Assembly: GCA_963747145.1 (NCBI GenBank)
Contig: CAVVDZ010000006.1
Coordinates: 311,756-375,755 of the forward strand
Direction: 5' to 3'
Length of the DNA: 64,000 nt
Source: an uncultured Gammaproteobacteria bacterium
GTDB taxonomy: Bacteria; Pseudomonadota; Gammaproteobacteria; Steroidobacterales; Steroidobacteraceae
Below are positions 3,656 to 51,836 of the stretch, piece by piece. Made by a program: the position numbers and the translations under genes. The first letter of the stretch is position 1; each line of letters begins with the position of its first letter. The notes under the pieces were generated by a model, which saw nothing but the letters and a program-made list of their open reading frames with translations, was not told the DNA's origin and ran no database searches.

Positions 3656-4818
3656 GCGCGATGTCCCTGGACCAGTCCCAGGACGGCCTCGGCCGCGCGG
3701 TCGCTGGCACCGGCCCGCAGCTCGCGGTGGATGACCGTGAACTGCGCAACCAGCGCCGCCACTTCGGCCGGTGCTTCGAGCCAGCGCTCGATTTCGCGGC
3801 CCAGGCGTTCGGGACTGACATTGCCCTGGGCCAGTTCCGGGACGACCTGCCTGCCGGCCAGCAGGTTCGGTTGCGCAAAGAATGGCGCTTTCAGCAGGCG
3901 CAGCGAACGCAGCGCCAGGGCCGTCATCCAGCCGAGGCGATAGGCGACGACCATCGGCCGCTTGCAGAGGAGTGTCTCGAGGGTCGCCGTTCCGGAAGCG
4001 ACGAGTACCACGTCGGCCGCCGTGAGCGCCGCCTGCGAGCGCCCGTCGATGACCTTGACGGGAACGCCCGGCGCGCGGCGCGCCAGCGCAGTCTCGAATA
4101 GTGCGCGGGTCCTGCCGCTCGTGAGGGGCGCGACAAACTGCAATCCGGGCCGCCGCGCGGCGAGCCAGGCGATCGCGCCCGCGAAATCATCCGCGAGGCG
4201 CGCGACTTCGCCGACGCGGCTCCCCGGCAGTACGGCGAGAACCTGGCTGTCGGACGGAAGCGCGAGGCTCGCGCGGGCGGCCGCGCGATCAGGCGAGAGC
4301 GGCAGCTGGTCGGCCAGCGGATGGCCGACAAACACGGCTTTCAGGCCCGCGGAATCGTAGATCCGGGGCTCGAAGGGCAAGAGGCACAGCACGAGATCAA
4401 GGTAGCCCGCCATCCGGCGCGCGCGGCCCTGACGCCAGGCCCAGACCTGCGGACTCACGTATTGCACCGTGCGGATACCCGCGCCATGCAGTACGGCGGC
4501 CAGACTCAGGTTGAACTCCGGCGCATCGATGCCGATGAACACATCCGGCCGCTCGATGAGGAAACGGCGGCGCAGTGTGCGGCGCAGGCGCAGCAGGCGC
4601 GGCAGGTGATGCAGCACCTCGAAGAGGCCCATGACCGCGAGTTCGTCCGCCGGCGCCCAGGCCTCGCAGCCCTCGGCAGCCATGGCGGGACCGGCGACGC
4701 CGGCAAACCGCGTGCCGGGCGCTCGCTCACGGATGGCCCTGATCAATGCCGCACCGAGGTTGTCTCCGGAGGATTCGCCGGCGACCAGGCCGATCGTCAG
4801 CGTCTTGCCGGGTGTCAT
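3652..4818 (-). CDS. lpxB: Lipid-A-disaccharide synthase
   Basis: The track ORF 3652..5211 overlaps lpxA, so I trimmed it to the internal ATG at 4818 ([29 protein letters not shown]...). This start overlaps the lpxA stop as ATGA. Length is 388 aa, typical for LpxB. Confidence 0.9.
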
Positions 4819-6040: not shown

Positions 6041-7086
6041 TCGTCCGTCTCCTGGCCCGGCCCGTTGCCGCTTTCGAGCCGCGCCAGCCGCCGCTCGAGA
6101 GCATCGAGTCGCCGCAGCCTGGCAACCGTGCGGCGCCAGTCGATCGACTGGATCGCCGGCATCCCGGATGAGTAGGTCCCCGGTCCCGGCAGCGAATGCG
6201 TGACCATCGAGTAGCCCGTCACGATGACGTCGTCACCGATCTCGAGGTGCCCGACGATGCCGACCGCGCCGCCGATCATGCAGCGTCGCCCGATGATCGT
6301 GCTGCCGGAAATGCCGGCGCAGCCCGCGACCACCGTGTGCGCGCCGATCCGGCAGTTATGGCCGACCTGCACCTGGTTGTCCAGCTTGACGCCGTCGTCG
6401 ATGACCGTGTCCTCGATCGTGCCGCGGTCGATGGTCGTGTTGCAGCCGACCTCGACGTCGTTGCCGATCCGAAGGCCGCCAAGATGCGGCACCTTGACGA
6501 ATCCGTCGGGGGCCGGTGCAAAACCGAAGCCATCGCTGCCGACCACTGCGCCCGGCTTGAAGATGCAGCGTGCACCGATCGTCGCGTGATGGCCGATCGT
6601 GACACCGGCCTGCAGCCGGCAGTCATCGCCGAGTCGCGCACCCTCCTCGATGACGCAGTTGGGGCCGATCGAGCAGCGCTCGCCGATCACTGCGCGCTCA
6701 CCGACGACCGCATTGGGGCCGACCCAGGCGCTCGCCGCGACTCTCGCACTGCCGGCGATGCTGGCACCCGGGGCGATGCCCGAGGTCACTGCGGGCTCTG
6801 GATACATTCCCGCGGCGATCCGCGCGTAGGCGGCATAGGGATGGGGGCTGATGAGCGCTGCGACCGGGCACTCCGGCAGCAACTCGCGCGCGAGCACGAC
6901 GGCCGTCGCCTTCGTGGCCGCGAGCTGGCGGCGGTACTTTGCACTGCTGCAGAAGCTGAGGGTGCCCGGCGTCGCCGATGCGAGCGCGGCGACGCCATCA
7001 ACCTTGAGGCCAGGATCCCCGGAGAGTTCGAGTCCGTAGCGAACCGCAAGCTCGCCGAGCGTGATCGCCATGGCGGCGCTCCCCAC
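6037..7086 (-). CDS. lpxD: UDP-3-O-acylglucosamine N-acyltransferase
   Basis: 349 aa with long left-handed beta-helix hexapeptide repeats. Position between skp and fabZ. Confidence 0.93.
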
Positions 7087-7103
7087 TGGCGGTGGCCCGC
7101 CGC

Positions 7104-7658
7104 TCAGGGCTTGGGCGCTGGGGCGGGCGTCGCTGCCGGCGCCTTGGCCTTCACGGCCGCGATCACCTGCGGCGTGATGTCCACCGCATCGGCCGCGAAC
7201 AGCACGCCATCGCTTATGATCAGCTGGTAGCCATTGGCACGCGCGTAGACCTGCACTTCCTGGAGCAGCGCGCGCTGCACCTTGCCGAATTCCTCGTTGC
7301 GCCGCAGGTTGGCGTCCTCCTGCAATTCGTTGAAGCGCCGCTGCAGGTTGATCTCGCCTTCGCGGACGTCCCGTTCAGCCTTCGTGCGGTCCGCCTCGGA
7401 CATGACGGCGGCCTCGCGCTTCAGCTTGTCGGACTTTTCCTGCAGGGTCTTCTGCTGGCTGGCGAGATCGCGCTGCCGCGGCATGAACTCGCCCTCGAGC
7501 GCCTGCTGGGCCGCTCGCGCCTGCGGCGATTCCTCGAGGAGCCGGCCCGTATTCACGTAGCCGATCTTGATTTCGGCCTGGGCCGCCACCGGCAGGGCCG
7601 CGAAAACGACTGCCGAAAGCAGTGCGCAGGGAATGGAAAGCCTGGTCATGGTTGTCAT
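7104..7658 (-). CDS. skp: Periplasmic chaperone Skp/OmpH
   Basis: I trimmed the track ORF to the ATG at 7658: MTTMTRLSIPCALLSAVVFAALPVAAQAEIKIGYV (signal peptide), followed by a coiled-coil Q/E/R-rich body. It lies between bamA and lpxD. Confidence 0.8.
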   Translation of the reverse strand: MTTMTRLSIPCALLSAVVFAALPVAAQAEIKIGYVNTGRLLEESPQARAAQQALEGEFMPRQRDLASQQKTLQEKSDKLKREAAVMSEADRTKAERDVREGEINLQRRFNELQEDANLRRNEEFGKVQRALLQEVQVYARANGYQLIISDGVLFAADAVDITPQVIAAVKAKAPAATPAPAPKP

Positions 7659-7672
7659 CTTTTCTCGACTCG

Positions 7673-10108
7673 TCAGAAGGCGCCACCGATCGTGAACTGG
7701 AAGCGTTCGACTTCGTCCGGATAGCGGACCGCGTCGCCCTTGTACTCGTTCAGCGGGACGCCGTAGCTGAACCGGAACACGCCGAGCGGCGCAAGCCACT
7801 GCACCGCAATGCCCGCCGATTGCTTCAGCTCATTGTAATCGAACTTGTAGTCGACCGGCGTGACGCCATCGCGGCCGACGAAATGGATGCTCGAGCCCTG
7901 CGCAAACACGTTGCCGATGTCGTAGAAAAGGCCCATGCGCGTGCTCGCCCGCCATTTCTGGGGCACCGGGAACAGGAGCTCGGCGCGCCCGATCACCTTC
8001 ATGTTGCCGCCGTAGGGATTCCCGAAGCTGTCCTTGGGCCCGAGCCGGCTCTCCGAGTAGCCGCGCACGGACTCCGGCCCGCCGGCGAAGAACTGGCGGT
8101 ACGGCGGCAGCGCCGTCGTGTCATTGCCGAGCGCTTCGCCGTAGCCAAGTTCCCCGCTGAACGCGACCGTCCAGCGCTTGCCGAGGGGCAAGAGCTGCAG
8201 GAAATCGTAATTGAAGACGTAGTAGTTGACCTCGCTGCCGGGCGCAGCAAATGAGACCGAAAGCGAATGCTTCATGCCGCGGTCGGCGAAGATCGCGCGA
8301 TTGCGCGAATCGTAGAACCACCCGGTCACGAGCTCAAAGGTGTTGAACTTCGTGCCGAACAGGCAGCGGGTCGTCGGATCCGGGTCCTCGCAGTCCGGAT
8401 CGGGGATTTCGGTCGAGATGACGCGCGTATAGGGATTGCCATTGGCCCGGACCCAGGCCACGGCCTCCGCGGCGCTGCCGAGCGGATTGACCACCAGGTC
8501 GGACTGCTGCGCAACCAGCCCGAAGCGCAGGCCCTGGAATTCTGTGATCGGATATCCATATTCGATCGTGGCGGACATGGTCGTCGTCGAGAAATCCGAC
8601 GCCGCCGACACGAATTGCGTGATGTCGCGGTACTGCAGCCCGAGCGTGCGCGACAGGCCGTCGACACTCGTGTACGGGTCGGTGTGCGAAATGCTGTAGG
8701 ACTGCGAATAGCGGCCGGACACCAGTTCGACGGCGAGCCGCTCGCCCGAGCCCATGAAATTCGAATGCACGAAGCTGCCGTTCAGCATGAACGACTGCGA
8801 CTCCGAATAGCCGACGCCGCCGCTGAACTGCCCGGGCAGGCCTTCCTTGATGTCGAAGTCCACGTCCACCAGGTCCGGCGTTCCCGGCACCGGTTTCGAC
8901 TCGAATTCGACCTTCTCGATGTATGGCAGGCGCTGCAGGCGTTCTTTCGAGCGTTCCAGCAGCGCATTCGACAGGTACGAACCCTCGAGCTGGCGCAACT
9001 CGCGGCGCAGGACCTCGTCGTCGATCGCACTCGTGTTGATGAAGTTGATGCGCCGCACGTAGGCGCGGCTGCCGGGATCGACGAAGAAGGTCAGGCCGAC
9101 CGTCATCTTCTCGTCGTCAGCCTGCGGCACCGGGTCGATCTTGGCGAAGGCGTAGCCTTCCACGCCGAGCCGGTAGGCCAGCAGTTCCTGGGTCTGCGTG
9201 ATCAGCTTGCGGGAATAGGTCTGTCCCGGCTGGACCAGCAGCAGTTTCTTCAACTCCGCCTCGGGAACCTTCATCGTGCCGGCGAGCTTCACCTCGCCGA
9301 CCTTGTAGACATCGCCCTCATGGACATTGACCGTGATGAAGATGTCGTCCTTTTCGGGCGCGATCGCGACCTGCGTGGACTCCACCGCGAAATTCGCATA
9401 GCCGCGGTCCTGGTAGTAGGACTGCAGCTTCTCAAGGTCGCCCTGCAGGGACTCGCGCGAATAGCGGTCGTTCTGCTTGTACCAGGACAGCCATCCTGGC
9501 GTTTTCAGCTCGAAGTCCTCGAGCAGCGTCTCGTCGTCATACGCTTCGTTGCCGACCACGTTGATCTGGCGGATGCGAGCGCGCTTGCCCTCGACAACCG
9601 TGATCTTGATCTTGACCTTGTTGCCGGGGACCTCTTCCACCTTGGGATCGATGCGCACCGCGTACTTGCCGCGGCTGAAGTACTGGTCGGTCAGGTAGCC
9701 CTGAACCTCCTCGAGCACCGAGCGGTCGAATGTCTTGCCGGTCGCGAGGCCGACCGAGCGCAGCGATTTCTGCAGGTCTTCGGTCTTGATGTCCTTGTTC
9801 CCGGTGATCTCGAAGCTCTCGATGGACGGACGCTCGTACACGACGACGACCAGCGTCGAGCCGTCGCGCCGCAGTTCGATGTCGCGGAAAAAGCCCGTCG
9901 CAAACAGGGCGCGGATCGCTTCCTGGACGCGGCGCTCGTCGAGCCGGTCGCCGATATTGACCGGCAGGTAGTTGTAGATCGTGCCTTCCGAGATGCGCTG
10001 CAGGCCCTCGACGCGGATGTCGCCCACGATGAACTCGGGGCCCACGCCCTGCGCGAGCGCCGCGGGGACGTATGCCAGCAGGATGCCGCCGATGAGCCGT
10101 CGAAGCAT
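7673..10108 (-). CDS. bamA: Outer membrane protein assembly factor BamA
   Basis: I trimmed the track ORF to the ATG at 10108: MLRRLIGGILLAYVPAALAQG. It has POTRA repeats and a C-terminal barrel ending FQFTIGGAF. The upstream extension in the track would overlap rseP. Confidence 0.92.
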   Translation of the reverse strand: MLRRLIGGILLAYVPAALAQGVGPEFIVGDIRVEGLQRISEGTIYNYLPVNIGDRLDERRVQEAIRALFATGFFRDIELRRDGSTLVVVVYERPSIESFEITGNKDIKTEDLQKSLRSVGLATGKTFDRSVLEEVQGYLTDQYFSRGKYAVRIDPKVEEVPGNKVKIKITVVEGKRARIRQINVVGNEAYDDETLLEDFELKTPGWLSWYKQNDRYSRESLQGDLEKLQSYYQDRGYANFAVESTQVAIAPEKDDIFITVNVHEGDVYKVGEVKLAGTMKVPEAELKKLLLVQPGQTYSRKLITQTQELLAYRLGVEGYAFAKIDPVPQADDEKMTVGLTFFVDPGSRAYVRRINFINTSAIDDEVLRRELRQLEGSYLSNALLERSKERLQRLPYIEKVEFESKPVPGTPDLVDVDFDIKEGLPGQFSGGVGYSESQSFMLNGSFVHSNFMGSGERLAVELVSGRYSQSYSISHTDPYTSVDGLSRTLGLQYRDITQFVSAASDFSTTTMSATIEYGYPITEFQGLRFGLVAQQSDLVVNPLGSAAEAVAWVRANGNPYTRVISTEIPDPDCEDPDPTTRCLFGTKFNTFELVTGWFYDSRNRAIFADRGMKHSLSVSFAAPGSEVNYYVFNYDFLQLLPLGKRWTVAFSGELGYGEALGNDTTALPPYRQFFAGGPESVRGYSESRLGPKDSFGNPYGGNMKVIGRAELLFPVPQKWRASTRMGLFYDIGNVFAQGSSIHFVGRDGVTPVDYKFDYNELKQSAGIAVQWLAPLGVFRFSYGVPLNEYKGDAVRYPDEVERFQFTIGGAF

Positions 10109-17577: not shown

Positions 17578-17697
17578 GATTGCTCCTGTTCGGGTTAAGC
17601 CTCCGCGGATCCGCATGCGGCAACCAGGCCCGAAGGCCCGGCACCCAGCCGCACGTGACGATACGCGTGTGGATTTGGTTGAGAAAAAACGCCGCGC

Positions 17698-37519: not shown

Positions 37520-38458
37520 TCAGCCCGTTTCGGATGGGCTCGGGACCGTGTCGGTCCCTTCTTCGCAGCTGAACTCGACCGTGTGATACGACTGCGGCTC
37601 CGGCACGCGCCCGAGTCCGATGACGCCCTTGCCCTTCAGCGGAATCGCATCCCGGCGCACGAAAGCATCGTCGCCATTCTGGCCCTGCACGAACGAGCCG
37701 TTCGTGCTCTCGTCGATCAGCATGAACCGGTTCTTGCCGGCCTCGATGCGCGCGTGCAGGCGCGAGACCAGGTTGCCCTTGATCACCAGGTCGTTTTCCT
37801 GGCCGCGTCCCAGGGTCGCCGACGCGCGCTCGCGATCGTCGAGCACCAGTTCCTGGCCGAGGTAGTTGAGACGGATGCGGAATGTCCGGTGCTGCTCGGT
37901 GATCGTCGCGATCATCGGCAGCATGCTGGTCGTATCGCCGTGCTGCCAAAGCACCTCGAAGATCGTGACCTCGCCTTGCTGGCCGCGCGGCACCGCCACG
38001 TCCACCTGGCGCGCGATCGCGCGCCAGTCATCCGACAGGCGCGCGTAGATCGAGTCCGTGATGATGATCTGCCCTGCCTTCGCCTGGCTGGTCATGCGAT
38101 TGGCGGTGTGCACAGCCGCGCCGAAGACATCGCGCGTCTCGAGCACGACGGGGCCGAAATGGCAGCCGATGCGGATCGCGATCTGCTGGCCGGCCACGTC
38201 CAGCTCCGGATGCGCCTCGATCGCGACCTGCATCTGGACTGCGGCGTCCATCGCCTTGTCGCAATCCTCGAAAGTCGCCAGGATCTCGTCGCCCATGGTC
38301 TTCACGACCGAACCGCCGCGCTGCTCGGTCGCACCACGCATGATGTCCACGCAAAGCGCGACCTTGTCGCGTGCGGTCAGGTCGCCCAGCACCTCGAACA
38401 GGCGTGTGCTGCCGACGACGTCGGCAAAGAGAATGACGAGTTCCTTGTCCTTGCCCAT
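37520..38458 (-). CDS. Class III adenylate/guanylate cyclase fused to a C-terminal FHA domain
   Basis: I trimmed the track ORF to the ATG at 38458: MGKDKELVILFADVVGSTRLF, KTMGDEILATF, RIGCHFGPVV...DVFGAAVHTANRM (cyclase homology domain). The FHA-like part follows: ATLGRGQENDLVIKGNLVSRLHARIEAGKNRFMLIDESTNGSFV. Confidence 0.8.
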   Translation of the reverse strand: MGKDKELVILFADVVGSTRLFEVLGDLTARDKVALCVDIMRGATEQRGGSVVKTMGDEILATFEDCDKAMDAAVQMQVAIEAHPELDVAGQQIAIRIGCHFGPVVLETRDVFGAAVHTANRMTSQAKAGQIIITDSIYARLSDDWRAIARQVDVAVPRGQQGEVTIFEVLWQHGDTTSMLPMIATITEQHRTFRIRLNYLGQELVLDDRERASATLGRGQENDLVIKGNLVSRLHARIEAGKNRFMLIDESTNGSFVQGQNGDDAFVRRDAIPLKGKGVIGLGRVPEPQSYHTVEFSCEEGTDTVPSPSETG

Positions 38459-38626
38459 GGCCGGTCGAGGGTCACCTGAGGCTAGCGCATTGATTATAGG
38501 CGTTATGTCACGGCGTGGCATCCCGGGCCCCGGCGGGCATTTTTTCGCGACTGCGGCAGATTGGGGCGCGGCGGCGGCCAGCCGGCGCTGACATGCTCCG
38601 AGCGTCACCGGCAGGGAGGCCAGGAC

Positions 38627-39133
38627 ATGGCGCTCAGCGTCGAGACCGCGACGTTGGAATCGCTGCGGCACGTCGTCGCGCAGAGCCGAGGCCGGCATGC
38701 ACTGTACGCCGACCATGTGCGCCGCAACGTCGCCGCCCGCCAGCTCGCCCAGAGCTGCAGTCGCCACCGCCTGAAGTGCCTGGTCTGGTGCATCACCGAC
38801 CGGCGCTTCCACGTCGTGCTGCGTGGCGCGCCGGCATCGATCACGCTCGCGACCCACGAGCTGATCGGTTCAAGACTGCGGCACGGACATTGGCTGTCCA
38901 CGATGGTCAATCCCGACCTGTACCTGCTCGAGGTCGTCAGGCACGTGCTGCTCGGCCCCGTGCGCGCGGGCCTGTGCCGCCATGCAGCCGAATGGCCGTT
39001 CTCGAGCGCGCGCGAATCGCTGGGCCTCAGGCCCGCGCCGCCGTGGATGGACCTCACAGCGCTCTACGACCTGCTCGGCCCACGCGACGGCCTGGGTGAC
39101 ACGCGCTTGCGCCGCTTCATGGATGGCGCGTAG
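38627..39133 (+). CDS. IS200/RAYT (Y1 transposase, COG1943)-like protein, apparently catalytically degenerate
   Basis: The ATG is preceded by GGGAGG. The C-terminal half, LYLLEVVRHVLLGPVRAGLCRHAAEWPFSSARESLG, resembles the RAYT block ...YIxxNPVxxGxVxxxxDWPFSS. The HUH position reads RRFHVVL, so only one His is present. Confidence 0.55.
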   Translation: MALSVETATLESLRHVVAQSRGRHALYADHVRRNVAARQLAQSCSRHRLKCLVWCITDRRFHVVLRGAPASITLATHELIGSRLRHGHWLSTMVNPDLYLLEVVRHVLLGPVRAGLCRHAAEWPFSSARESLGLRPAPPWMDLTALYDLLGPRDGLGDTRLRRFMDGA

Positions 39134-40142: not shown

Positions 40143-40616
40143 ATGATCGCAAGGATCGTCGTCGCCAACCAGTCGGAAGCGAGATTCTACGACTCGTCAG
40201 GACCCGCATCGCAGTTGCAGGCGGCCGGACGACTCGACAATCCGGACGCCCGGCTGCACGACCGGGACCTGAAATCCGACCGCCCGGGTCGCGTCTTCAC
40301 GAGCGCTTCCAGCGGTCACGGGCGGCGCGGAGCGGTCGCGCATCATGGTGCCGGTGGCGAGCAGAGTCCCCGCAAGCATGTCGCGACCGTCTTTGCGAAA
40401 CGGATTGTGGATGAACTCGCCACGGCAAAGCAGGGCCGGCAGTTCGACCGCCTGGTCCTGATCGCCGCACCCGCTTTCCTCGGCATCCTGCGCAAGGCCC
40501 TTCCGGAATCGCTGCAATCCGTCGTGACCGCGGAGGTCGCGAAGGACTTGCAGGACCCGACCGACGATGAAGTGCGCGAGCACATACCCGCGCAGGCCTT
40601 TCACACAAAGCCCTGA
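40143..40616 (+). CDS. Host_attach (PF10116)-like protein
   Basis: 157 aa: MIARIVVANQSEARFYDS...DLKSDRPGRVF...EQSPRKHVATVFAKRIVDELATAKQGRQFDRLVLIAAPAFLGILRKAL...EVAKDL. The pattern matches my memory of the host-attachment protein family. Confidence 0.65.
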   Translation: MIARIVVANQSEARFYDSSGPASQLQAAGRLDNPDARLHDRDLKSDRPGRVFTSASSGHGRRGAVAHHGAGGEQSPRKHVATVFAKRIVDELATAKQGRQFDRLVLIAAPAFLGILRKALPESLQSVVTAEVAKDLQDPTDDEVREHIPAQAFHTKP

Positions 40617-40624
40617 CCGCGGGA

Positions 40625-41590
40625 TCAGTTGATGGTCTTGGAGACCGGCCCGGCGTTCGCGCTTTCGGCACCGGTCGTGTCGTAGGCGCTGATCACGAAA
40701 TAATAGGTTCCCGCGGGCAGGTTCGGGACGACCGCGCTCGTCAGGCTTCCGTTCGTGATATCGACGAGGTTCGGGTAACTGCCGATCGCGGTCCCGTAGC
40801 GGATGTGATAACCGTCGAGATTGGTCAACGACGATCCGTCCGTGCGCGTCGTCGGTGGCTGCCAGGAAAGCGTGGCGCTGCCGAGCGATGCCTGTGCGAC
40901 CACGATCGTGAATTGCGGCAGCGTCGCCGTGGCGGAACCGTCGCCGACGCCGATCGTGATACTCGCGTAGTTGCCGACCGTACCGGTGCCGGGTGTGCCC
41001 GTCAGTGCGCCGTTCGTGTCGTTGAACGACGCCCACGCCGGCCGGTTCGCGATGCTGAATGTCAGCGCATCGCCATCGGCATCGTTCGCCACGGGCGTGA
41101 ATGCATACGCCTGGCCTTCACGCGCCGCCGCGGGCGGCGATCCGCTGATCGTCGGCGCCCGGTTGGATTGCGTGACGCTGACTGCGAACGGCGCCAGCGA
41201 AGCGCTCGCCTGGCCGTCGCTGACGCTGATGCGGATGTCGATGTATTCGCCGACCGCTGGCGCCGCCGGTGACCCGGAGAGTTGCCCGTTCGCGGTGCTG
41301 AAGGAGGCCCAGGCAGGCCGGTTCACGATGCTGAAAGAGAGCGGATTGCCGTCGGGGTCGGATGCCACCGGCGTGAAGCTGTAGGTCTGGCCGGTGATCA
41401 CCGAGGGCGCCGGCGCGCCCGAAATGACCGGAGCGCCATTTGCCGGCGGCGGCGGCGGCGGCGGCGGCACCCAGCAGGTTCTGCCCCTGCGCTTCCACCG
41501 ACAGCTCCAGGTATCGGCTTCGGCAACGGAGGCCAGTGTCATGGCGGTCACGAGGAATGCCACGACCGCTATCAATTTCGCCTGGCGCAT
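40625..41590 (-). CDS. Secreted protein: signal peptide, Cys-loop, poly-Pro linker, 2 He_PIG/cadherin-like repeats, C-terminal FN3
   Basis: The ATG at 41590 is preceded by GGAG. Signal peptide MRQAKLIAVVAFLVTAMTLASVAEA, then DTWSCRWKRRGRTCWVPPPPPPPP. Two ~92-aa repeats follow (GQxYxFTPxAxDxDGxxLxFSIxNRPAWASFxxxxGxLxGxP...). The FN3-like tail is ATLSWQPPTTRTDGSSLTNLDGYHIRYG...YYFVISAYDTTGAESANAGPVSKTIN. Confidence 0.75.
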   Translation of the reverse strand: MRQAKLIAVVAFLVTAMTLASVAEADTWSCRWKRRGRTCWVPPPPPPPPANGAPVISGAPAPSVITGQTYSFTPVASDPDGNPLSFSIVNRPAWASFSTANGQLSGSPAAPAVGEYIDIRISVSDGQASASLAPFAVSVTQSNRAPTISGSPPAAAREGQAYAFTPVANDADGDALTFSIANRPAWASFNDTNGALTGTPGTGTVGNYASITIGVGDGSATATLPQFTIVVAQASLGSATLSWQPPTTRTDGSSLTNLDGYHIRYGTAIGSYPNLVDITNGSLTSAVVPNLPAGTYYFVISAYDTTGAESANAGPVSKTIN

Positions 41591-41604
41591 GTCGATGACT
41601 CCGC

Positions 41605-41641
41605 TGTTGTGTGGCCGGGCTGTCGCACCGGCCACAAACAA
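41605..41641 (-). promoter_or_regulatory. Leader hairpin between the riboswitch aptamer and the RBS (candidate expression platform)
   Basis: RNA sense: GUUGUUUGUGGCCGG ugcgacagc CCGGCCACACAACA, immediately followed by GCGGAGUCAUCGAC-AUG. There is no U-tract. Confidence 0.45.
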
Positions 41642-41677
41642 CGGACGCCGAGGTAGAGCACAGACGTGCCGCCTCAA

Positions 41678-41760
41678 GTGGCAACCCCGCTATCGTGGGC
41701 CGTGCGGCCGACAGACCGGTGGCTTTGCGCCCCCGCCTTTCGACGGGTTTGCTCTGTTTC
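41678..41760 (-). promoter_or_regulatory. c-di-GMP-I (GEMM-I) riboswitch aptamer
   Basis: RNA sense: ACAGAGCAAACCCGUCGAAAGGCGGGGGCGCAAAGCCACCGGUCUGUCGGCCGCACGGCCCACGAUAGCGGGGUUGCCAC. It has the conserved GCAAACC block, a GAAA-capped P1b (CGUC/GGCG), GGGNCGCAAAGCC, CCGG, and AGCGGGGUUGCC closing P1 (GGCAA/UUGCC). This is a near block-for-block match to the V. cholerae Vc2 aptamer as I remember it. Confidence 0.85.
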
Positions 41761-41773
41761 ACTGTCGACGGGG

Positions 41774-41801
41774 ATTCTGGCGCGCGTGTCGTCGATGACA
41801 A
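41774..41801 (-). promoter_or_regulatory. Candidate sigma-70 promoter driving the riboswitch leader
   Basis: On the minus strand: TTGTCA, a 16-nt spacer, then CAGAAT. The -10 element ends about 20 nt upstream of the aptamer. Confidence 0.35.
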
Positions 41802-41864
41802 GCACGGCGTGTCGCGACCGGCAGACACTTTGCGACAGTCAGTGACGCAACAGTGCGTCGGGAC

Positions 41865-44800
41865 TTATGTCCTGGTGCGGGTGATCAGCTTGCGGTGCGG
41901 GAATCCGGACATCGGGCACGGGCGGCCGCACAGGAATCCCTGCGCATAGCCGACACCGATCTGGCGCAATGTCTCGAGCACTTCGGGAGTCTCGACGCGC
42001 TCGGCGACGGTCTCGATGCCGATCGCTTTGCCGATCTGGACGATCGCCTCGACCATGCTCCGGTCGATGCGGTCGTTGGCAACGTTCTGGACGAACTGCC
42101 CGTCGATCTTCAGGAAATGCACCGGCAGCGTGCGCAGGTAATTGAACGACGACAGTCCGCTGCCGAAATCGTCGAGCGCGATCAGGCAGCCGCGGCTCGC
42201 CATCTCGCGCATCAGGTAGCTCGCGTGCCCGAGGTTCGTGATCGCGGCCGTTTCGGTGACCTCGAAGCACAACACGCCCGGCGTCGGCTCGTGGGTCTCA
42301 AGGGTCTGGATCAGGAATTCGAGGAATCCCGGGTCGGAGAGTGTCGTTCCGGACAGGTTGACCGCGACCGTGAACTCCGCCGTCTCGACGCCATCCTTGG
42401 TGGACGGCACGATGTCGCGCAGGACCTTTTCGACGACCCAGCGATCCAGCGACGGCATCAGGTTGTAGCGCTCAGCCGCCGGGATGAACTCGTCGGGCAA
42501 CACGGTCTGGCCATTCTCGTCAAGCAGGCGCAGCAGCAATTCGTAATGCGGCCGCGCGTCCGCCGGGCCTGAGATCTTGACGATCGGCTGGAACACGATG
42601 TCGAGGCGTCCCTCATCGCGGGCGTTCGTCAGCCGCGACATCCAGCGCATCTCACGGTGGCGCGCCGAGGCGCTCGCCGGGTCGTAAACCTGCACGCGGT
42701 TGCGGCCGCCGTCCTTTGCCGAATAGCAGGCAATGTCGGCGGCCGACAGCAGCGTCGCGACGCTCTCAGTGTCGTGGTTGATTTCGACGATGCCGATGCT
42801 GGCGCCGATCTGCAAAGTGCTCGCGCCCCAGTTGAACCGCAGGTCGCGGATCGCCTGGCGAAGCATGTCGGCGATGCGCAGCGCCTGCTCCGGCGTGCAA
42901 TGCTCGAGCAGCACGCCGAACTCGTCGCCGCCGAGGCGCGCCAGCACGTCGTTGGCGCGCACGCGGGTCTGCAGCAGGCCCGTGACCTGGCGCAACAGCT
43001 GGTCGCCGGCCGGATGGCCGCAGGTGTCGTTCACGACCTTGAACTGGTCAAGGTCCACATAGACCATCGCATGGCGGATGTTGTGGTCCGCGCGCGCGGT
43101 TTCCAGCGCGACATTGAGCCGGCTCTCGAACTCGCGGCGGTTGATCAGCCCGGTCAGTGCGTCGTGCGCCGCCTGGTAGGACAACAGGCGCTTCATCCGG
43201 CGCTCGCGGCTGACATCGCTGAAGACCATCACCGCGCCGGCCGTGTTTCCATTGCGATCGCGGATCGGTGCCACCGTCGCCTGGATCGGCACCTCGGCAC
43301 CGCTCCTGCTCACGAGCACCGTCTGGTCGGCAAGGCTGAGCGGCTCGCCGGTCACGAGCGCGCGGCTCACGGGGTCGTCGATCGGCGCCTGGCTGCCGTC
43401 GGTGACCAGCTTGACGACGACCGTGACATTGCGGCCACAGGCCTCGCGGGAATCCCAGCCGGTCAGCTTCTCGGCGATCGGATTCACGTAGTCGATCGTC
43501 CCGGCGCGATCGGTCGTGATCACCGCGTCTGCGATCGACTGCAGTGTGACCTCAGCGCGCTCCTTCTGCTCGTAGAAGCGCTGCTCAGCGCGCTTGCGCT
43601 CCGTGATGTCCGTGACCGTTCCCTCGAAACCGGTCGGCTGGTTGCGCTCGTCGCGGTTGAGCCGCGCGTTCTCCGTGATCGTGATGATCGTGCCGTCCTT
43701 GCGCTTCAGGTCGTACTCGGTCTCGACCAGCTCGCCCTCGGTGATCAGCCGGTCGATCAGCCGGTGGCGGGTCTCGGGCACGACATACAGCGTCTCGGTC
43801 GAGCCGATGGCGCGCAGTTCCTCGAGCGAGGCATAGCCCAGCATCTCGATCAGCGCCGGGTTGGCCGACAGCAGGTAACCCTCCAGCGTGACCTGGTAGA
43901 CGCCCTCGACGACATTGTCGAAGAGGCCGCGGAACCGCCGTTCGCTTTCCCGCAGCGCGTCCTCGCTGCTGCGCCGCTCGATCGCGATGCGCGCGAGCTG
44001 GGCCATGCGTCCGACCAGTTCGAGGTCGCGCCGCGATGGCATGCGCGTGCGCTTCAGGTAGGTTGCGAATGTGCCGAGCGTGCGGCCATCGGCCCCGGTG
44101 ATCGGCGTCGACCAGCAGGCATGCAGGCCGGCCCGCGCGGCCGCGTCGCGGCGATGTTCCCACAGCGCGTCCTTCGCGATGTCCGGGACGATGATCTGGC
44201 GCTGCAGCGCCACTGCTGCGGCGCAGGATCCGAAGCGGATCTCGGCAGGGACATTGTCCATCAGCGCGACATACTCGCGCGGCAGACTGGGACCGGCCGC
44301 ATGGGTCAGCGTCCGCTTCACCGGGTCATACAGCCGGATGCAGCAGACCGCGTCCGGCAGCACGCGTTCGACGACCTCGGTGATCGCCACCAGCGCGCCC
44401 GTCAGCGGCTCGTTCGACGCGATCTTCTCGAAAGCGCGCCGTTCGCCTGTGCTGATCAGCTCGGCCCTCTTGCGCTCGGTGATGTCGATGATGCTGGCTC
44501 GGATCAGGCTGCCATTGGAACTCGGCAGCCGCACGAAACGAACTTCGCAGGGCATTACATTGCCGTCGGCATCGCGGTGCAGCCACTCGAAGACCGGCGC
44601 GCCGCCCGACAGCGCCTCTTCGACATAGCCGCGGCTGATGCCGAATGACGGCGTACCATCCGCCTGCAAGGGCGGGCTGACCGACGCCGGCCCGATGCTC
44701 AGGAGCTTCTCGCGGGTCATCTTGAAGAATTCGGCCGCGTTCTCGTTGCAGTCCACGAAGCGGCCGGACTCGACGTCCAGCACGACGACCGCCTCGGGCG

Positions 44801-45551
44801 CGTTTTCGACCAGCACGCGGTAGCGGGCCTCGCTGTCCTTCAGCGCGTCCTCGGCCTTGGACCGCTCGGCCATGTCGCGCACGCAGATGATGTAGGTCGG
44901 GCGGCGCTTGGTCAGCATCTTGCTGACCAGGACCTCGGCCGGCATCAGGTCCCCACGCTGGTGCTTTGCGACCACTTCGCGTGCCGCCAGGTCGTAGTGC
45001 GTGTTTTCCTGGGACGCCGCCAGGTCATCGAGCGTGCGGCCGATGTCGCCGCCGACCGCGATCTGCGGCAGCAGCACGTCCAGCGTCTGCGATAGCACGT
45101 CGCTCTGACGGATGCCGAAGAAGCGTTCCGCGGTGCGGTTGACGCTTTCGATCTGCCCGCGGTAGTCGCAGGAAATGATCCCGTCCTTGACGTGATCGAG
45201 TATCGCCTGCAGCTTCGCGACGCTCTCCCGCTCGACCTTTTCCGTGATCGCCGTCGCCTCGTCCGAGGCGAGCCGCATGACGGTCTCGAGGCTCGTGCGT
45301 TCGTTCTCGAAAATGTCGTACTGGTGGGTAACGATCGTCAGCAGCTTGCGCAGCCGCATCTTGCCGTCGGTGTCGGCGGCTTCGAGCAGCTGGCGCTCCA
45401 GCAGGGGGTGGAGGTCATCGGCGCGGCGCTCATGCTCCGCCGCGGGCTCCGCTACGGCTGTCGGCACAGGCGCAGCCACGGGCGTCGCGACTGCCTTCGG
45501 CGCAGGCGCTTTGAGCCGCACGACATTGCCCGGATCTTTCTTGGCCACCAT
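41865..45551 (-). CDS. Multidomain c-di-GMP turnover protein: PAS-PAS-GAF-PAS-PAS-GGDEF-EAL
   Basis: 1228 aa with repeated PAS-type blocks, each ending ...DITERKRAE. A GAF-like segment (RLYDPVKRTLTHAAG...CWSTPITGADGRTLGTFATY). GGDEF domain with intact RLGGDEFGVLL and DLDQFKVVNDTCGH. EAL domain with YELLLRL, NLSG, FEVTE, ALDDFGSGLSSFNYL, LKIDGQFV, AERVET and GYAQGF. Confidence 0.9.
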   Translation of the reverse strand: MVAKKDPGNVVRLKAPAPKAVATPVAAPVPTAVAEPAAEHERRADDLHPLLERQLLEAADTDGKMRLRKLLTIVTHQYDIFENERTSLETVMRLASDEATAITEKVERESVAKLQAILDHVKDGIISCDYRGQIESVNRTAERFFGIRQSDVLSQTLDVLLPQIAVGGDIGRTLDDLAASQENTHYDLAAREVVAKHQRGDLMPAEVLVSKMLTKRRPTYIICVRDMAERSKAEDALKDSEARYRVLVENAPEAVVVLDVESGRFVDCNENAAEFFKMTREKLLSIGPASVSPPLQADGTPSFGISRGYVEEALSGGAPVFEWLHRDADGNVMPCEVRFVRLPSSNGSLIRASIIDITERKRAELISTGERRAFEKIASNEPLTGALVAITEVVERVLPDAVCCIRLYDPVKRTLTHAAGPSLPREYVALMDNVPAEIRFGSCAAAVALQRQIIVPDIAKDALWEHRRDAAARAGLHACWSTPITGADGRTLGTFATYLKRTRMPSRRDLELVGRMAQLARIAIERRSSEDALRESERRFRGLFDNVVEGVYQVTLEGYLLSANPALIEMLGYASLEELRAIGSTETLYVVPETRHRLIDRLITEGELVETEYDLKRKDGTIITITENARLNRDERNQPTGFEGTVTDITERKRAEQRFYEQKERAEVTLQSIADAVITTDRAGTIDYVNPIAEKLTGWDSREACGRNVTVVVKLVTDGSQAPIDDPVSRALVTGEPLSLADQTVLVSRSGAEVPIQATVAPIRDRNGNTAGAVMVFSDVSRERRMKRLLSYQAAHDALTGLINRREFESRLNVALETARADHNIRHAMVYVDLDQFKVVNDTCGHPAGDQLLRQVTGLLQTRVRANDVLARLGGDEFGVLLEHCTPEQALRIADMLRQAIRDLRFNWGASTLQIGASIGIVEINHDTESVATLLSAADIACYSAKDGGRNRVQVYDPASASARHREMRWMSRLTNARDEGRLDIVFQPIVKISGPADARPHYELLLRLLDENGQTVLPDEFIPAAERYNLMPSLDRWVVEKVLRDIVPSTKDGVETAEFTVAVNLSGTTLSDPGFLEFLIQTLETHEPTPGVLCFEVTETAAITNLGHASYLMREMASRGCLIALDDFGSGLSSFNYLRTLPVHFLKIDGQFVQNVANDRIDRSMVEAIVQIGKAIGIETVAERVETPEVLETLRQIGVGYAQGFLCGRPCPMSGFPHRKLITRTRT

Positions 45552-49226: not shown

Positions 49227-51001
49227 CTACGGAATGGTCTTGGAGACGGGGCTCGAATCGGCGCTTTCCACGCCCGCGGAATCAAAGGATGCGAGCACGA
49301 AGAACCAGGTGCCCGATGCCAGGTTTTCGACCATGTAGCTCGTCACGCCCGGATTGTTGATCGAGATCGTGGTCGGGTAATTGCCGGCGGCATTGCCATA
49401 GCGGACCTTGTAGCCGGCCAGGTCCGTGAGCGGCGAACCATCCGCGTGAGTCGTCGGCGGCGTCCAGCTGAGCGTCGCCGTACCGTTGGCGGACTGCTGG
49501 ACCGTAATCGAGAACGCGGCGAGCGAAGCCTGCAGCGTGCCATCGCTGGCCGTGATCACGACGTTCGGATAGCTGCCGATCGTGCCTGCGCCCGGCGTGC
49601 CTGACAGCCTGCCGGTGCCGGTATCGAATGCGGCCCACGAAGGCTTGCCCGTGATGCTGAAGCTGATCGCATCGCCATCCGGGTCATTCGCGGTCGGGAT
49701 GAACGAATAGGCTTGCCCGGCGACGACCGAGGTGGCCGGCGCGCCTGAAATCGTCGGCGGGCGATTGGCCTGGTCCACGGTGATCGAGAACGCCGCCAGC
49801 GCGGTGTTTGCCATGCCGTCACCGACACTGATGCGGATGTCCACGTACTCGCCGACCGCGCTCGATGCCGGCGTGCCCGACAGGCGGCCGGTCGTCGCGC
49901 TGAAAGTCGCCCAGGTCGGCCGGTTCACGATGCTGAAGCTGATCGGGTTGCCATCCGGATCGGAAGCCGTCGGCGTGAACGAGTACGCCTGGCCGCTGGT
50001 CACGGTCGCTGCAGGCGTTCCACTGATCGTCGGGGCGCGATTGGGTGCGACGGTGATCGTGAACGAGCCCAGCGATGCGGACAGGCTGCCGTCGCTCGCG
50101 GAGATCACGATACCGGCATAGCTGCCGGCACTACCCGCCGGCGGCGTGCCGGACAGGCGCCCATTGCTGGTGCTGAAGCTCGCCCAGGACGGCTTGTTGC
50201 TGATGCTGAAGCTCAACGGATTGCCGTCGGGATCGCTCGCGGTCGGCGTGAATGCGTAGGCGATGGCTTCGCGCCCGGCCGTGGACGGGCTGCCGCCGAT
50301 CACTGGCGGACGGTTGGCCGCAGTCACGGTAATCGCAAATGCCGGCAGCGCAGCGCTTGCCGCGCCGTCGGAAACGCTGATCCGGATGTTCGAGTAAGTC
50401 CCGGCTGCGCCAGAGCCTGGTGTGCCGGACAGGCGTCCCGTGGCCGCACTGAACGCCGCCCAGGCCGGTCTGCCCGGAAATCGAGAATGTCAGCGCCTGC
50501 CCGTCAGGATCGGAGGCCGCCGGTGTGAACGCGTACGCCTGCCCTTCGACGACCGATATCGGAGCGCTGCCAGAGATCACGGGCGGGCGGTTGGCCGGCG
50601 GCGTCACGGGCGCCGCATTCGACGACGATGCGGAAGGCGTTGCCCTGCGTGACGTTGACGCTGTCCCTGACGGAAATCTGCACCGCATCGTAGGTGCCGA
50701 CATTCGCGTCGGCGGGCGTACCGGACAACCTGCCCGTCGCGCTGTCGAACGACGCCCAGGCGGGCTGGTTCGCGATCTCGAATGTCAGCGGATCGTTTTC
50801 GGGGTCGCTCGCCGTCGGCGTGACCTGGAAAGGGTTGCCGGCCATGATCGACGACTCGGTCGCCACCGTGGAGATTGTCGGCGCCTGATTGACGGGCGGT
50901 GGCGGAGTCGCTGCCGCTGCGTCGCTTTTCTGCTCGTCCCATGGGCACGCGCTCAGGGGAAGAACGAGCAGTCCGACTGCCAGGATTCTCAGCATTCTCA
51001 T
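49227..51001 (-). pseudogene. Lipoprotein with 5 He_PIG/cadherin-like repeats plus C-terminal FN3; the reading frame is interrupted twice by single inserted bases
   Basis: The gene lies in three track ORFs (50504..51001, 50131..50703, 49227..50327) that join into one protein. N-terminus: MRMLRILAVGLLVLPLSAC (lipobox). Five ~92-aa repeats follow, then ATLSWTPPTTHADGSPLTDLAGYKVRYG...WFFVLASFDSAGVESADSSPVSKTIP. The frame breaks are at about 50620 and in the CCC run at 50473..50475. Confidence 0.78.
49494..50896 (-). repeat. Five degenerate tandem coding repeats (~276 bp each, He_PIG-like modules); boundaries approximate
   Basis: The peptide pattern NR(A/P)P(T/V)ISG...GQAY(S/A)FTP(T/A)ASDPDG(N/Q/D)x(L/I)(S/T)FSIxx(R/K)P(S/T/A)WAxFxxxxGRLSGTP...(F)xITV recurs 5 times. 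Confidence 0.7.
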
Positions 51002-51072
51002 GTGGCAACCCCGCTGTCTCTCTCGAGACCGGAAGCTTTGCGTCCCCGCCTCACGACGGGTTTGCCGCTTAC
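51002..51072 (-). promoter_or_regulatory. c-di-GMP-I (GEMM-I) riboswitch aptamer abutting the start codon
   Basis: RNA sense: AAGCGGCAAACCCGUCGUGAGGCGGGGACGCAAAGCUUCCGGUCUCGAGAGAGACAGCGGGGUUGCCAC, followed directly by AUGAGAAUG. It has the same conserved blocks as the 41678..41760 copy, with a GUGA-capped P1b and a short GAGA-capped P2 (GUCUC/GAGAC). Confidence 0.85.
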
Positions 51073-51126
51073 ACTTGATTCAACGTGCCGGGATTATCGG
51101 GCCGTCATCGCGAGCGCGTGAGACCG

Positions 51127-51170: not shown

Positions 51171-51836
51171 TCAGGCGATCGTCTTGGAGGCGACGTTCGA
51201 CCGCGAGCTCTCGCCGCCCGTGTCGTCATAGGCGGTGGCCGCGAAGAACCAGGTGCCGACCGTCAGGTTGTCGATCAGCTGGCTGCGCGCGCCGGGGTCT
51301 GCGACCTGAATGACGAAATTCATGTCGCTGGCCGAATTTCCATAATAGACGCGGAAGCCGGCCAGGTTGGTCAGCGGGGTGCCGTCCACGCGCTGCGTCG
51401 GGGCCTGCCAGGAAAGCGTCGCACGGCCCGCCACCGCCGCAGAGACCGTGATCCTCGACTGGTTCGAGGCCTGCGCCTTGCCGTCCGACACGGTGAAGAC
51501 CGGCGTGAACACGCCGACGTCGCCGGCGGCAGGCGTGCCCGTCAGCACGCCGGTCTGGGCCGAGAAGTTCGCCCAGGTCGGCCGATTCGAAATCGAGAAT
51601 GTCAGTGCGTCACCGTCAGCGTCGGACGCGGTCGGCGTGATCGTCAATGCGCGGCCAACCAGGACGTCGATGGAACCCGTGACCGAAATGGTCGGCGCGT
51701 GGTTGACCGCAGGCGGGGGCGGCGTGACTACCGGCGGCGGCTCGCTCGAAGTCTTTGATCCGCCTCCGCCAAAGCACGCGACCAGCGCCATCGCTGCGGT
51801 TCCGATCAGGGCAGTACGCAATGTGAATGCGATCAC
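51171..51836 (-). CDS. Lipoprotein with 1 He_PIG/cadherin-like repeat plus C-terminal FN3 (third paralog)
   Basis: The GTG at 51836 is preceded by AGAGG. N-terminus: IAFTLRTALIGTAAMALVAC (lipobox), then a Pro-rich linker. One repeat (LTITPTASDADGDALTFSISNRPTWANFSAQTGVLTGTP). FN3-like tail: ATLSWQAPTQRVDGTPLTNLAGFRVYYG...WFFAATAYDDTGGESSRSNVASKTIA. Confidence 0.75.
   Translation of the reverse strand: MIAFTLRTALIGTAAMALVACFGGGGSKTSSEPPPVVTPPPPAVNHAPTISVTGSIDVLVGRALTITPTASDADGDALTFSISNRPTWANFSAQTGVLTGTPAAGDVGVFTPVFTVSDGKAQASNQSRITVSAAVAGRATLSWQAPTQRVDGTPLTNLAGFRVYYGNSASDMNFVIQVADPGARSQLIDNLTVGTWFFAATAYDDTGGESSRSNVASKTIA

Follow-up and report, generated by a model that had tools for sequence, protein, structure and literature searches.

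The c-di-GMP-I or GEMM-I riboswitches (Rfam family RF01051), compared here by way of Vc2 of Vibrio cholerae, contact one base of their ligand cyclic di-GMP (c-di-GMP), the first, through G20 in Vc2 numbering and form a Watson-Crick pair between C92 and the second ligand guanine (PMC6140456). The phosphate of A47 touches the ligand, and the equivalent A41 of the Geobacter aptamer Gs1761 stacks between the ligand bases. In the GEMM-Ib RNAs of Geobacter (Gs1761, Gmet_0970) the GEMM-I fold carries an A at the position equivalent to G20. This A20 pairs with the adenine of 3',3'-cGAMP (c-AMP-GMP, the 3',3' form of cyclic GMP-AMP), and the exchange A20G reverts the selectivity (PMC6140456, PMC6456294); in Gmet_0970 it flips from cGAMP to c-di-GMP (PMC6456294). 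A20 aptamers whose own genome or clade also contains almost identical aptamers with G20 are represented by Cbe 1-2 of Clostridium beijerinckii and a cluster-3 aptamer of Desulfobacca acetoxidans. Here we describe an element of this kind in 64,000 nucleotides (nt) of DNA from an uncultured gammaproteobacterium of the Steroidobacteraceae, the whole stretch being referred to as the window. As an earlier interpretation of the letters alone (the sequence-only reading) had placed it, and as Pfam confirms, the element is situated within the 5' leader of the gene for a secreted protein with two He_PIG domains and a fn3-like part, directly downstream of a PAS/GAF-GGDEF-EAL gene. We propose, with a probability of about 60%, that it is a functional cyclic-dinucleotide riboswitch of the GEMM-I fold with its own promoter in the He_PIG/fn3 leader, predicted to be bispecific and to act by translational control.

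By score, fold and context the RNA belongs to the c-di-GMP-I family; one defining ligand-contact feature, G20, is missing. A search of the whole window with Rfam 15 gave 74.2 bits for RF01051 at 41677..41763 on the minus strand, the gathering score being 35 and E, calculated for the window as a whole, 1.1e-12, so that the check named beforehand, the covariance score against its threshold, was passed widely. The match covers model positions 1-87, which is the full length, with 0 non-canonical pairs flagged and all model pairs standard, and the fold evaluates to -30.3 kcal/mol. The RNA quoted in the sequence-only reading does stand on the minus strand at this place. Its parts are the following:

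41677..41763, minus strand: GEMM-I aptamer, full length (RF01051, 74.2 bits)
41763-41760 with 41680-41677, minus strand: outer P1, AGUG paired with CACU
41747-41732, minus strand: P1b hairpin with a GAAA loop
41724-41683, minus strand: P2
41753, minus strand: A at the equivalent of Vc2 G20 (model position 11, consensus G; RF01051 alignment)
41730, minus strand: near-invariant A replaced by G, GAC becoming GGC, within the internal loop 3' of P1b (model position 34; RF01051 alignment)
41726, minus strand: equivalent of A47, conserved (alignment ACGC-A-AAG)
41681, minus strand: equivalent of C92, conserved (alignment UUG-C-CACU)

P1, a GNRA-capped P1b joined via GC/GC pairs and a P2 with an internal loop are all present; in the Rfam model the pairing joins the GC of GCAAA with the GC of (A/G)CGCAAA. 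The outer P1 bases AGUG/CACU are invariant in all Steroidobacteraceae orthologs. A P1 of the form GGCAA/UUGCC, as drawn earlier, is absent from the sequence, which reads GAGCAA, and is not the pairing of the family either. With Vc2 the RNA shares the three-helix fold, the GAAA-capped P1b, the junctions GCAAACC and CGCAAAG, the equivalents of A47 and C92 and a 5'-leader location before a gene whose product is secreted or at the surface. It differs from Vc2 in the A that replaces G20, in the G that replaces the A of the GAC loop, and in a platform which is a hairpin system covering the Shine-Dalgarno sequence (SD) and not a terminator; the internal loop of P2 (UGUC/CAC) departs from the receptor consensus of the family (CUAAG/UAUG). 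The statement that every conserved GEMM-I block is carried was therefore wrong, as the consensus G-GCAAACC is here A-GCAAACC and the consensus GGGGACGC is here GGGGGCGC. The aptamer is situated between a promoter and the AUG, on the same strand as the gene, and recurs in orthologous leaders. As such it is findable by a standard Rfam scan, and the A20 variant class is already known.

Model positions 11 and 34 are both aligned with posterior probability '*'. For the latter we use the label A43, from a count along the Vc2 sequence. According to the alignment the pocket is A20/A47/C92 instead of G20/A47/C92, i.e. of the three bases that contact the ligand A47 and C92 are kept and G20 is replaced; A47 intercalates between the ligand bases in the Vc2 crystal structures. 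At the level of sequence this combination is the signature of c-AMP-GMP or bispecific GEMM-Ib RNAs. It agrees with the definition of GEMM-Ib as A20 with A47 and C92 retained (PMC6140456, PMC9481103). The earlier view of a canonical c-di-GMP sensor was not supported at this point, since the G20-equivalent base is A and the published change at this position gives c-GAMP or bispecific binding (PMC6140456, PMC6456294, PMC9481103).

Wild-type Vc2 binds c-di-GMP with picomolar affinity and 3',3'-cGAMP at 10 uM, and its G20A mutant binds c-di-GMP at 53 nM and 3',3'-cGAMP at 120 nM; Cbe 1-2 with its natural A20 binds both ligands in the nanomolar range as well, with 30 nM for c-di-GMP and 463 nM for 3',3'-cGAMP (PMC6140456). 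Among near-identical Desulfobacca aptamers the A variant gains affinity for c-AMP-GMP with little loss for c-di-GMP (PMC9481103), and Gs1761 is ~1200-fold selective for cGAMP (PMC6456294). Because published mutants and natural variants behave in this way, the A20 RNA of the window is predicted to bind c-di-GMP much less tightly than a G20 aptamer and 3',3'-cGAMP much better, and would be bispecific in vitro. In the cell it could serve as a high-threshold c-di-GMP sensor or as a cGAMP-responsive switch; the former is thought most likely because nothing here shows the organism making cGAMP. Compared to the Geobacter RNAs, the host is a metagenome-assembled genome (MAG) of a gammaproteobacterial Steroidobacteraceae and not Geobacter or another deltaproteobacterium, and a cGAMP synthase is not known for it. 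The junction of Gs1761 has a C15-G40 closing pair where the window RNA keeps GC/GC. The Geobacter GEMM-Ib RNAs are ON switches that work with terminators and precede genes for cytochromes and pili (PMC6456294).

A20-type aptamers are common, with at least 120 metagenome stretches containing AGCAAACC…GGGNCGCAAAGC. If all fetched loci are regarded, position 43 is A in 26 out of 26 G20 aptamers among the matches listed, and among the 126 A20 aptamers listed 109 have A, 16 have G and 1 has U at this position. The enrichment of G43 in A20 (16/126) compared to G20 (0/26) aptamers has a one-sided Fisher p = 0.042 for sequences that are non-independent, and the association of A20 with G43 is to be regarded as a lead, no more. 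Tandem arrangements of both pocket types were seen as well: in the metagenome loci L032, L048, L050, L067, L110 and L130 an A20 aptamer is followed by a G20 aptamer 165-230 nt apart, and L023 and L128 have the order G20 then A20, L128 being G20-G20-A20. Such heterotypic tandems, recurring in unrelated metagenome contigs, may represent two-ligand or two-threshold sensors.

To place the substitutions we compared orthologous loci. A first set comprised 10 loci holding relatives of the downstream He_PIG protein. The ranking of He_PIG homologs was unsuitable for finding orthologs, as longer multi-repeat proteins swamped the list, and 10 further syntenic loci were found by anchoring on the more conserved GGDEF-EAL gene. 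Ten full-length RF01051 aptamers occur in 8 of the 10 loci of the first set and an aptamer occurs in 6 of the 10 anchored loci, which amounts to 16 aptamers in 14 loci; their scores of 68.7-87.4 bits include the 74.2 bits of the window in their range. Of the related loci of Steroidobacteraceae/Gammaproteobacteria whose site was open to inspection, 15 of 18 have an aptamer at it. The aptamer is found immediately 5' of the He_PIG ortholog in L001-L004, L006 and L007; the contigs of L005 and L008 stop at the gene, which leaves the leader outside the view. The gene order BipA, GGDEF-EAL, aptamer with He_PIG, Dus is the synteny of L001, L006, L007, L131, L133-L136, L139 and L140.

Three members of this series, the window, L004 and L132, are the only ones with A20, and the same three have the change of GAC to GGC (G43). 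G20/A43 is found in L001, L002, L003, L006, L007, L133, L134/L136, L139, L140 and both tandem copies of L009 and L010. The simplest reading of this distribution would be a single origin of the A20+G43 state in one subclade of an otherwise G20/A43 orthologous series. In terms of the GGDEF-EAL protein, identity to the window is 95% for L131, 90% for L132 and 88-89% for L133, L134 and L001. Within the A20 clade the aptamers are 95-98% identical compared to 57-64% for the 100 nt upstream; the linker between aptamer and gene is 80-82% identical between the window and L004/L132. The differences in P2 preserve the structure (AGCC/GGUU vs AGCC/GGCU). This conservation amid diverged flanks, with few and structure-preserving changes, argues for continued purifying selection on the A20+G43 aptamer in three lineages, and not for sequencing error or free decay. 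In contrast to Cbe 1-2 and the Desulfobacca aptamer, the G20 and A20 forms are here orthologs at one syntenic locus, so that the change, recent and specific to one lineage, can be placed on a tree, and A20 is accompanied by the correlated G43 and a strengthened sequestering hairpin.

The slot is not occupied in the same way throughout. In L131 no Rfam match is obtained even at E <= 10, and the promoter is retained with fragments of the aptamer only. The leader of L131 (6152..6322) keeps the promoter and AGTGAAC…GGCGCAAATCCACCGGTCTG, its remnant still reads GGCGCAAA, and P1b, the 3' half of the aptamer, hairpin 1 and the 5' arm of hairpin 2 are missing. What is missing suggests a deletion that ran from the GGCC in P2 to the GGCC in hairpin 2, which is similar. 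The He_PIG gene of L131 is shortened to 213 amino acids (aa). Because L131 has lost the aptamer, selection on it within the A20 subclade is not absolute. In L137 the gene and the aptamer are absent, the slot between the GGDEF-EAL gene and Dus being empty (4444..4454), and L138 has a gene for a Pel9A-like beta-helix protein (6361..7701) in the slot and no aptamer. In the more distant gammaproteobacterial relatives L009 (9874..10163, minus strand) and L010 (5440..5726, plus strand) two full-length G20 aptamers stand in tandem, ~110 nt apart, the pair of L010 being upstream of the He_PIG homolog. Such a tandem may have been the origin of the long leaders with one aptamer in the Steroidobacteraceae.

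A further aptamer is located in the window itself:

51000..51075, minus strand: second GEMM-I aptamer with G20/A47/C92, a GUGA loop and a short P2 without receptor (66.7 bits)

The recurrence of the motif at 51 kb had been taken as an argument against chance. That part stands, as the second copy is real, but the pocket is not the same, since it keeps G20 and A43. Its best model is RF03167 (c-di-GMP-I-GGC) with 66.7 bits compared to a gathering score of 59, a score that is due to the short P2 and the P1 included in that model. With RF03167 it shares the short P2 without tetraloop receptor and an explicit outer P1; it differs in the base defining that family, RF03167 having a G at the A47-equivalent where the window copy has A and the standard G20/A47/C92 (ACGCAAAG vs the consensus ACGCGAA). 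The second aptamer is a standard receptor-less GEMM-I RNA with G20/A43. Its 3' end abuts the AUG at 51001 of a paralogous multi-repeat He_PIG/fn3 gene, and because a separate SD is absent the GGGG of the P2 3' strand must serve as SD of this gene. The paralogous gene (region 49227..51075, minus strand) has a lipoprotein-like signal (LPLSAC), and two frameshifts, near 50600 and 50470, are needed to read through to 49227, which means that the gene is a pseudogene or else that its repeats were misassembled. A third paralog with one He_PIG domain and a fn3-like tail (51171..51836, minus strand) is directly upstream of the second aptamer, and a search for a third aptamer before it gave none at E <= 5.

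The linker between the A20 aptamer and its gene comprises 86 nt with two hairpins. The elements relevant for a potential switch are:

41650..41675, minus strand: hairpin 1 (GAGGcGGCAC-GUCU-GUGCUcuaCCUC), from folding
41635..41649, minus strand: switching strand b (GGCGUCCGUUGUUUG), able to form helix B with the aptamer 3' strand or the base of hairpin 2 with the SD-proximal strand
41597..41649, minus strand: hairpin 2 with its core at 41642-41606; the base of the hairpin pairs the first two G of the SD
41615..41625, minus strand: motif CGACAGCCCGG, loop and 3' stem of hairpin 2, invariant in 9 of 10 long-leader orthologs
41599..41602, minus strand: Shine-Dalgarno sequence GGAG, 8 nt before the AUG at 41590..41588

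The downstream hairpin of the sequence-only reading is real, with its core one base off from where it had been put, and the arrangement GGAG-N8-AUG was borne out. The platform is not an intrinsic terminator, as had been suggested: the scan of 41400..42000 contains no terminator-like site. RNAalifold was applied to the aptamer 3' half plus linker of ten orthologs. It keeps 5 core pairs of hairpin 1, two of them with compensatory changes, and independently yields helix B around hairpin 1; most of the 10 orthologs retain 12 pairs of this helix. Helix B joins the aptamer 3' strand (GAUAGCGGG..UGCC) with GGCG..UCCGUUGUU (duplex -21.8 kcal/mol); in L134 CCCGCUAUC exactly complements GAUAGCGGG. If the transcript is folded as it grows, helix B is the minimum free energy structure at lengths of 128-160 nt, and from 170 nt on hairpin 2 (duplex -35.8 kcal/mol) and P2 win. 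RNAalifold also yields a helix D between the conserved motif CGACAGCCC and the SD region, and in L001, L139 and L140 the motif CGACAGCCCGG pairs with GGGGUUGUCG, the SD. The same motif complements the P2 5' strand CCGGUCUGUCG (duplex -20.2 kcal/mol). As a dispersed repeat CGACAGCCCGGCC was rejected, with 10 matches at <=2 mismatches compared to 7.4 expected and one exact copy.

From this we derive the following model. The 3' strand of the aptamer (GAUAGCGGGGUUGCC) would pair inside the aptamer (P2/P1), a state that the ligand would stabilise, or alternatively with leader strand b (GGCGUCCGUUGUU) to form helix B. If the aptamer holds its own 3' strand, b would be free to pair with the SD-proximal strand and hairpin 2 would close over the first half of the SD. 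The mutually exclusive helices thus tie the aptamer 3' strand to the SD-covering hairpin, which in the folding models points to control of translation initiation and not of intrinsic termination. The SD-to-start spacing is 7-8 nt in 10 orthologs. In the window the probability of being unpaired is ~0 for the first two G of the SD, both unconstrained and with the aptamer fold enforced, and in all ten leaders the SD is predicted to stay largely paired in either case. A thermodynamic ON/OFF prediction was dropped, as SD accessibility hardly differs between the free and the aptamer-enforced state in 10 orthologs. In the short-leader relatives L003 and L006 and at the second aptamer of the window there is no linker, the start codon abuts P1 and the sole purine-rich SD-like tract upstream is the GGGG inside the P2 3' strand. 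The folded, ligand-bound state of these short leaders would be the repressive one, and the long leader is built in a similar way near its SD; for this reason we lean weakly, at about 55:45, towards repression by the ligand. Hairpin 2 reaches its greatest strength in the A20 clade (-31 to -34 kcal/mol), where helix D is weakened in L004/L132 and broken in the window. The switch could have been retuned in this way, or could be drifting towards constitutive behaviour.

The linker resembles an aptamer in that ACAGCGGGGUUGUCGAC-AUG is like AUAGCGGGGUUGCCAC-UUG and hairpin 2 is like P2, and this likeness of sequence suggests that the linker may descend from one. A second weak aptamer within the linker was not found (no Rfam match at E <= 10). 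The UUG abutting P1 (41677-41675) was considered as start codon and rejected. Its frame is open and in phase with the main open reading frame in the window, L007 and L004; the codon is UAG in L001, and in L002 a UGA follows four codons later. We take AUG 41590 as the start because the downstream SD and start are conserved in all 10 long leaders.

Several observations weigh against a bispecific, translationally acting riboswitch. The selectivity of A20 aptamers ranges from c-di-GMP-preferring (Cbe 1-2) to strongly cGAMP-selective (Gs1761) and depends on features beyond A20. Only one GGDEF domain is encoded in the 64 kb of the window; it carries the canonical Asp and not the Ser/Thr that a Hypr GGDEF has at the position of PleD Asp344, and no cGAMP synthase is visible within the window. 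SD accessibility at equilibrium shows no clean ON/OFF difference in the window and nine orthologs, and the closest relative L131 has lost the aptamer entirely. It is possible, if unlikely, that the RNA is instead a dedicated c-AMP-GMP riboswitch of the GEMM-Ib type in a host that makes 3',3'-cGAMP via a Hypr GGDEF or DncV-like enzyme, with the G20 paralog sensing c-di-GMP, so that the two adhesin-like genes would be addressed separately. The GEMM-Ib signature of the pocket, the maintenance of the variant in three diverged lineages under purifying selection, the G20 aptamer on a paralogous gene within the same 10 kb, the correlated G43 among the matches listed and the abundance of A20-type aptamers in metagenomes would be in agreement with this. 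However, A20 alone leads to bispecificity and not to cGAMP selectivity, as in Vc2 G20A and Cbe 1-2 (PMC6140456), the GGDEF domain adjacent to the element is the canonical one just mentioned, and in the literature compared cGAMP riboswitch signalling is established for Geobacter and relatives, not for Gammaproteobacteria. We give a slightly smaller chance to an ordinary c-di-GMP-selective GEMM-I riboswitch in which both substitutions are neutral for the affinity and selectivity that matter to the cell. The high Rfam score with complete architecture, the adjoining GGDEF-EAL gene, the canonical orthologs and the remaining preference of the natural A20 aptamer Cbe 1-2 for c-di-GMP speak for it; yet in every published case compared here the exchange of G20 to A weakens the binding of c-di-GMP by orders of magnitude and strengthens that of cGAMP, and neither of the two changed positions varies elsewhere in the orthologous series.

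A riboswitch in decay, in which the pocket mutations abolish sensing, hairpin 2 silences or fixes expression and the fold is kept by inertia or for RNA stability, appears improbable to us. It could account for L131, where a GGDEF-EAL gene 95% identical stands next to a shortened He_PIG gene without detectable aptamer at E <= 10, for the lability of the slot in L137 and L138, for the strong hairpin 2 and damaged helix D of the A20 clade, and for an SD predicted to be paired in all states. The aptamer is nevertheless 95-98% identical across three A20 lineages compared to ~60% for the flanks, all helices are intact with structure-preserving changes within them, the bit score is inside the range of the canonical orthologs, and published A20 mutants and natural variants do bind ligand at nM. 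Least of all do we expect a functional aptamer that acts on Rho-dependent termination or mRNA decay in the 86-nt linker and not on ribosome access. Such a platform would explain why the accessibility of the SD at equilibrium is the same for the aptamer-free and the aptamer-enforced state, and a long structured leader without intrinsic terminator would suit it. Against it, SD and start codon lie in or beside the switching helices with conserved spacing, the short-leader orthologs leave room only for occlusion of the ribosome-binding site, and a C-rich unstructured rut-like tract is not evident in the linker sequence.

The genes and signals around the proposed bispecific riboswitch are:

41774..41801, minus strand: sigma-70-like promoter TTGTCA-N16-CAGAAT (9/12 matches; 1 site vs 0.0 expected in shuffles)
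40625..41590, minus strand: downstream gene, 321 aa, with Sec signal peptide (…ASVAEA/DT), poly-Pro linker, 2 x He_PIG/Big_9 and a C-terminal fn3-like part
40613..40628, minus strand: terminator-like hairpin with T-rich tail overlapping the He_PIG stop codon (weak consensus match, 1 vs 0.5 expected)
41865..45551, minus strand: upstream neighbour, PAS x4-GAF-GGDEF-EAL gene, 1228 aa (Pfam)

The promoter is placed between the stop codon of the GGDEF-EAL gene and the aptamer, with a predicted transcription start at ~41767, a few nt 5' of P1, and -35/-10-like elements are present at the same place in L001, L004, L132, L133 and L134. An inverted repeat TGTCGC-N16-GCGACA (41810..41837, minus strand) lies just upstream of the -35 hexamer, and its right arm TGCGACA is kept in the same five loci; it is a candidate transcription factor site at the riboswitch promoter. 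Pfam assigns He_PIG (2.1e-21), Big_9 (1.1e-13) and fn3 (2.4e-4, below cut-off) to the 321-aa protein. An identical protein is already on record (P0001), and its relatives in genome collections are all from MAGs of Steroidobacteraceae or unclassified Gammaproteobacteria. The terminator-like hairpin overlapping its stop codon suggests that the gene may be a monocistronic unit. The GGDEF domain of the 1228-aa neighbour is intact and has the guanine-specifying Asp (GHPAGD). The second gene downstream from He_PIG (37520..38857, minus strand) encodes a class III adenylate/guanylate cyclase domain fused to a FHA domain, a protein strongly conserved in L005 with tblastx segments up to 95% identical. 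The window further contains a full-length t44 RNA (RF00127) at 17594..17689 on the minus strand, with 69.2 bits compared to a gathering score of 44.

One syntenic locus thus shows two pocket types, with G20 in most relatives, A20+G43 in three and no aptamer in the closest. It represents a compact natural series on the change of affinity or ligand of a riboswitch and on its loss, and includes ready-made revertant controls as well as a G20 paralog in the same genome. A doubtful but far-reaching extension is that a c-di-GMP riboswitch was re-specified in place in one Steroidobacteraceae subclade into a cGAMP-responsive or dual-input switch, by G20A with the correlated A43G and a simultaneous strengthening of the sequestering hairpin. 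Sensing of cGAMP in vivo, if it occurs, would carry RNA-based signalling by this nucleotide beyond the Geobacter-type bacteria in which it was defined. If the re-specification holds true, soil Gammaproteobacteria would have regulatory signalling by 3',3'-cGAMP and a synthase for it that has gone unrecognised, and paralogous surface-protein genes 9 kb apart would be addressed by different cyclic dinucleotides.

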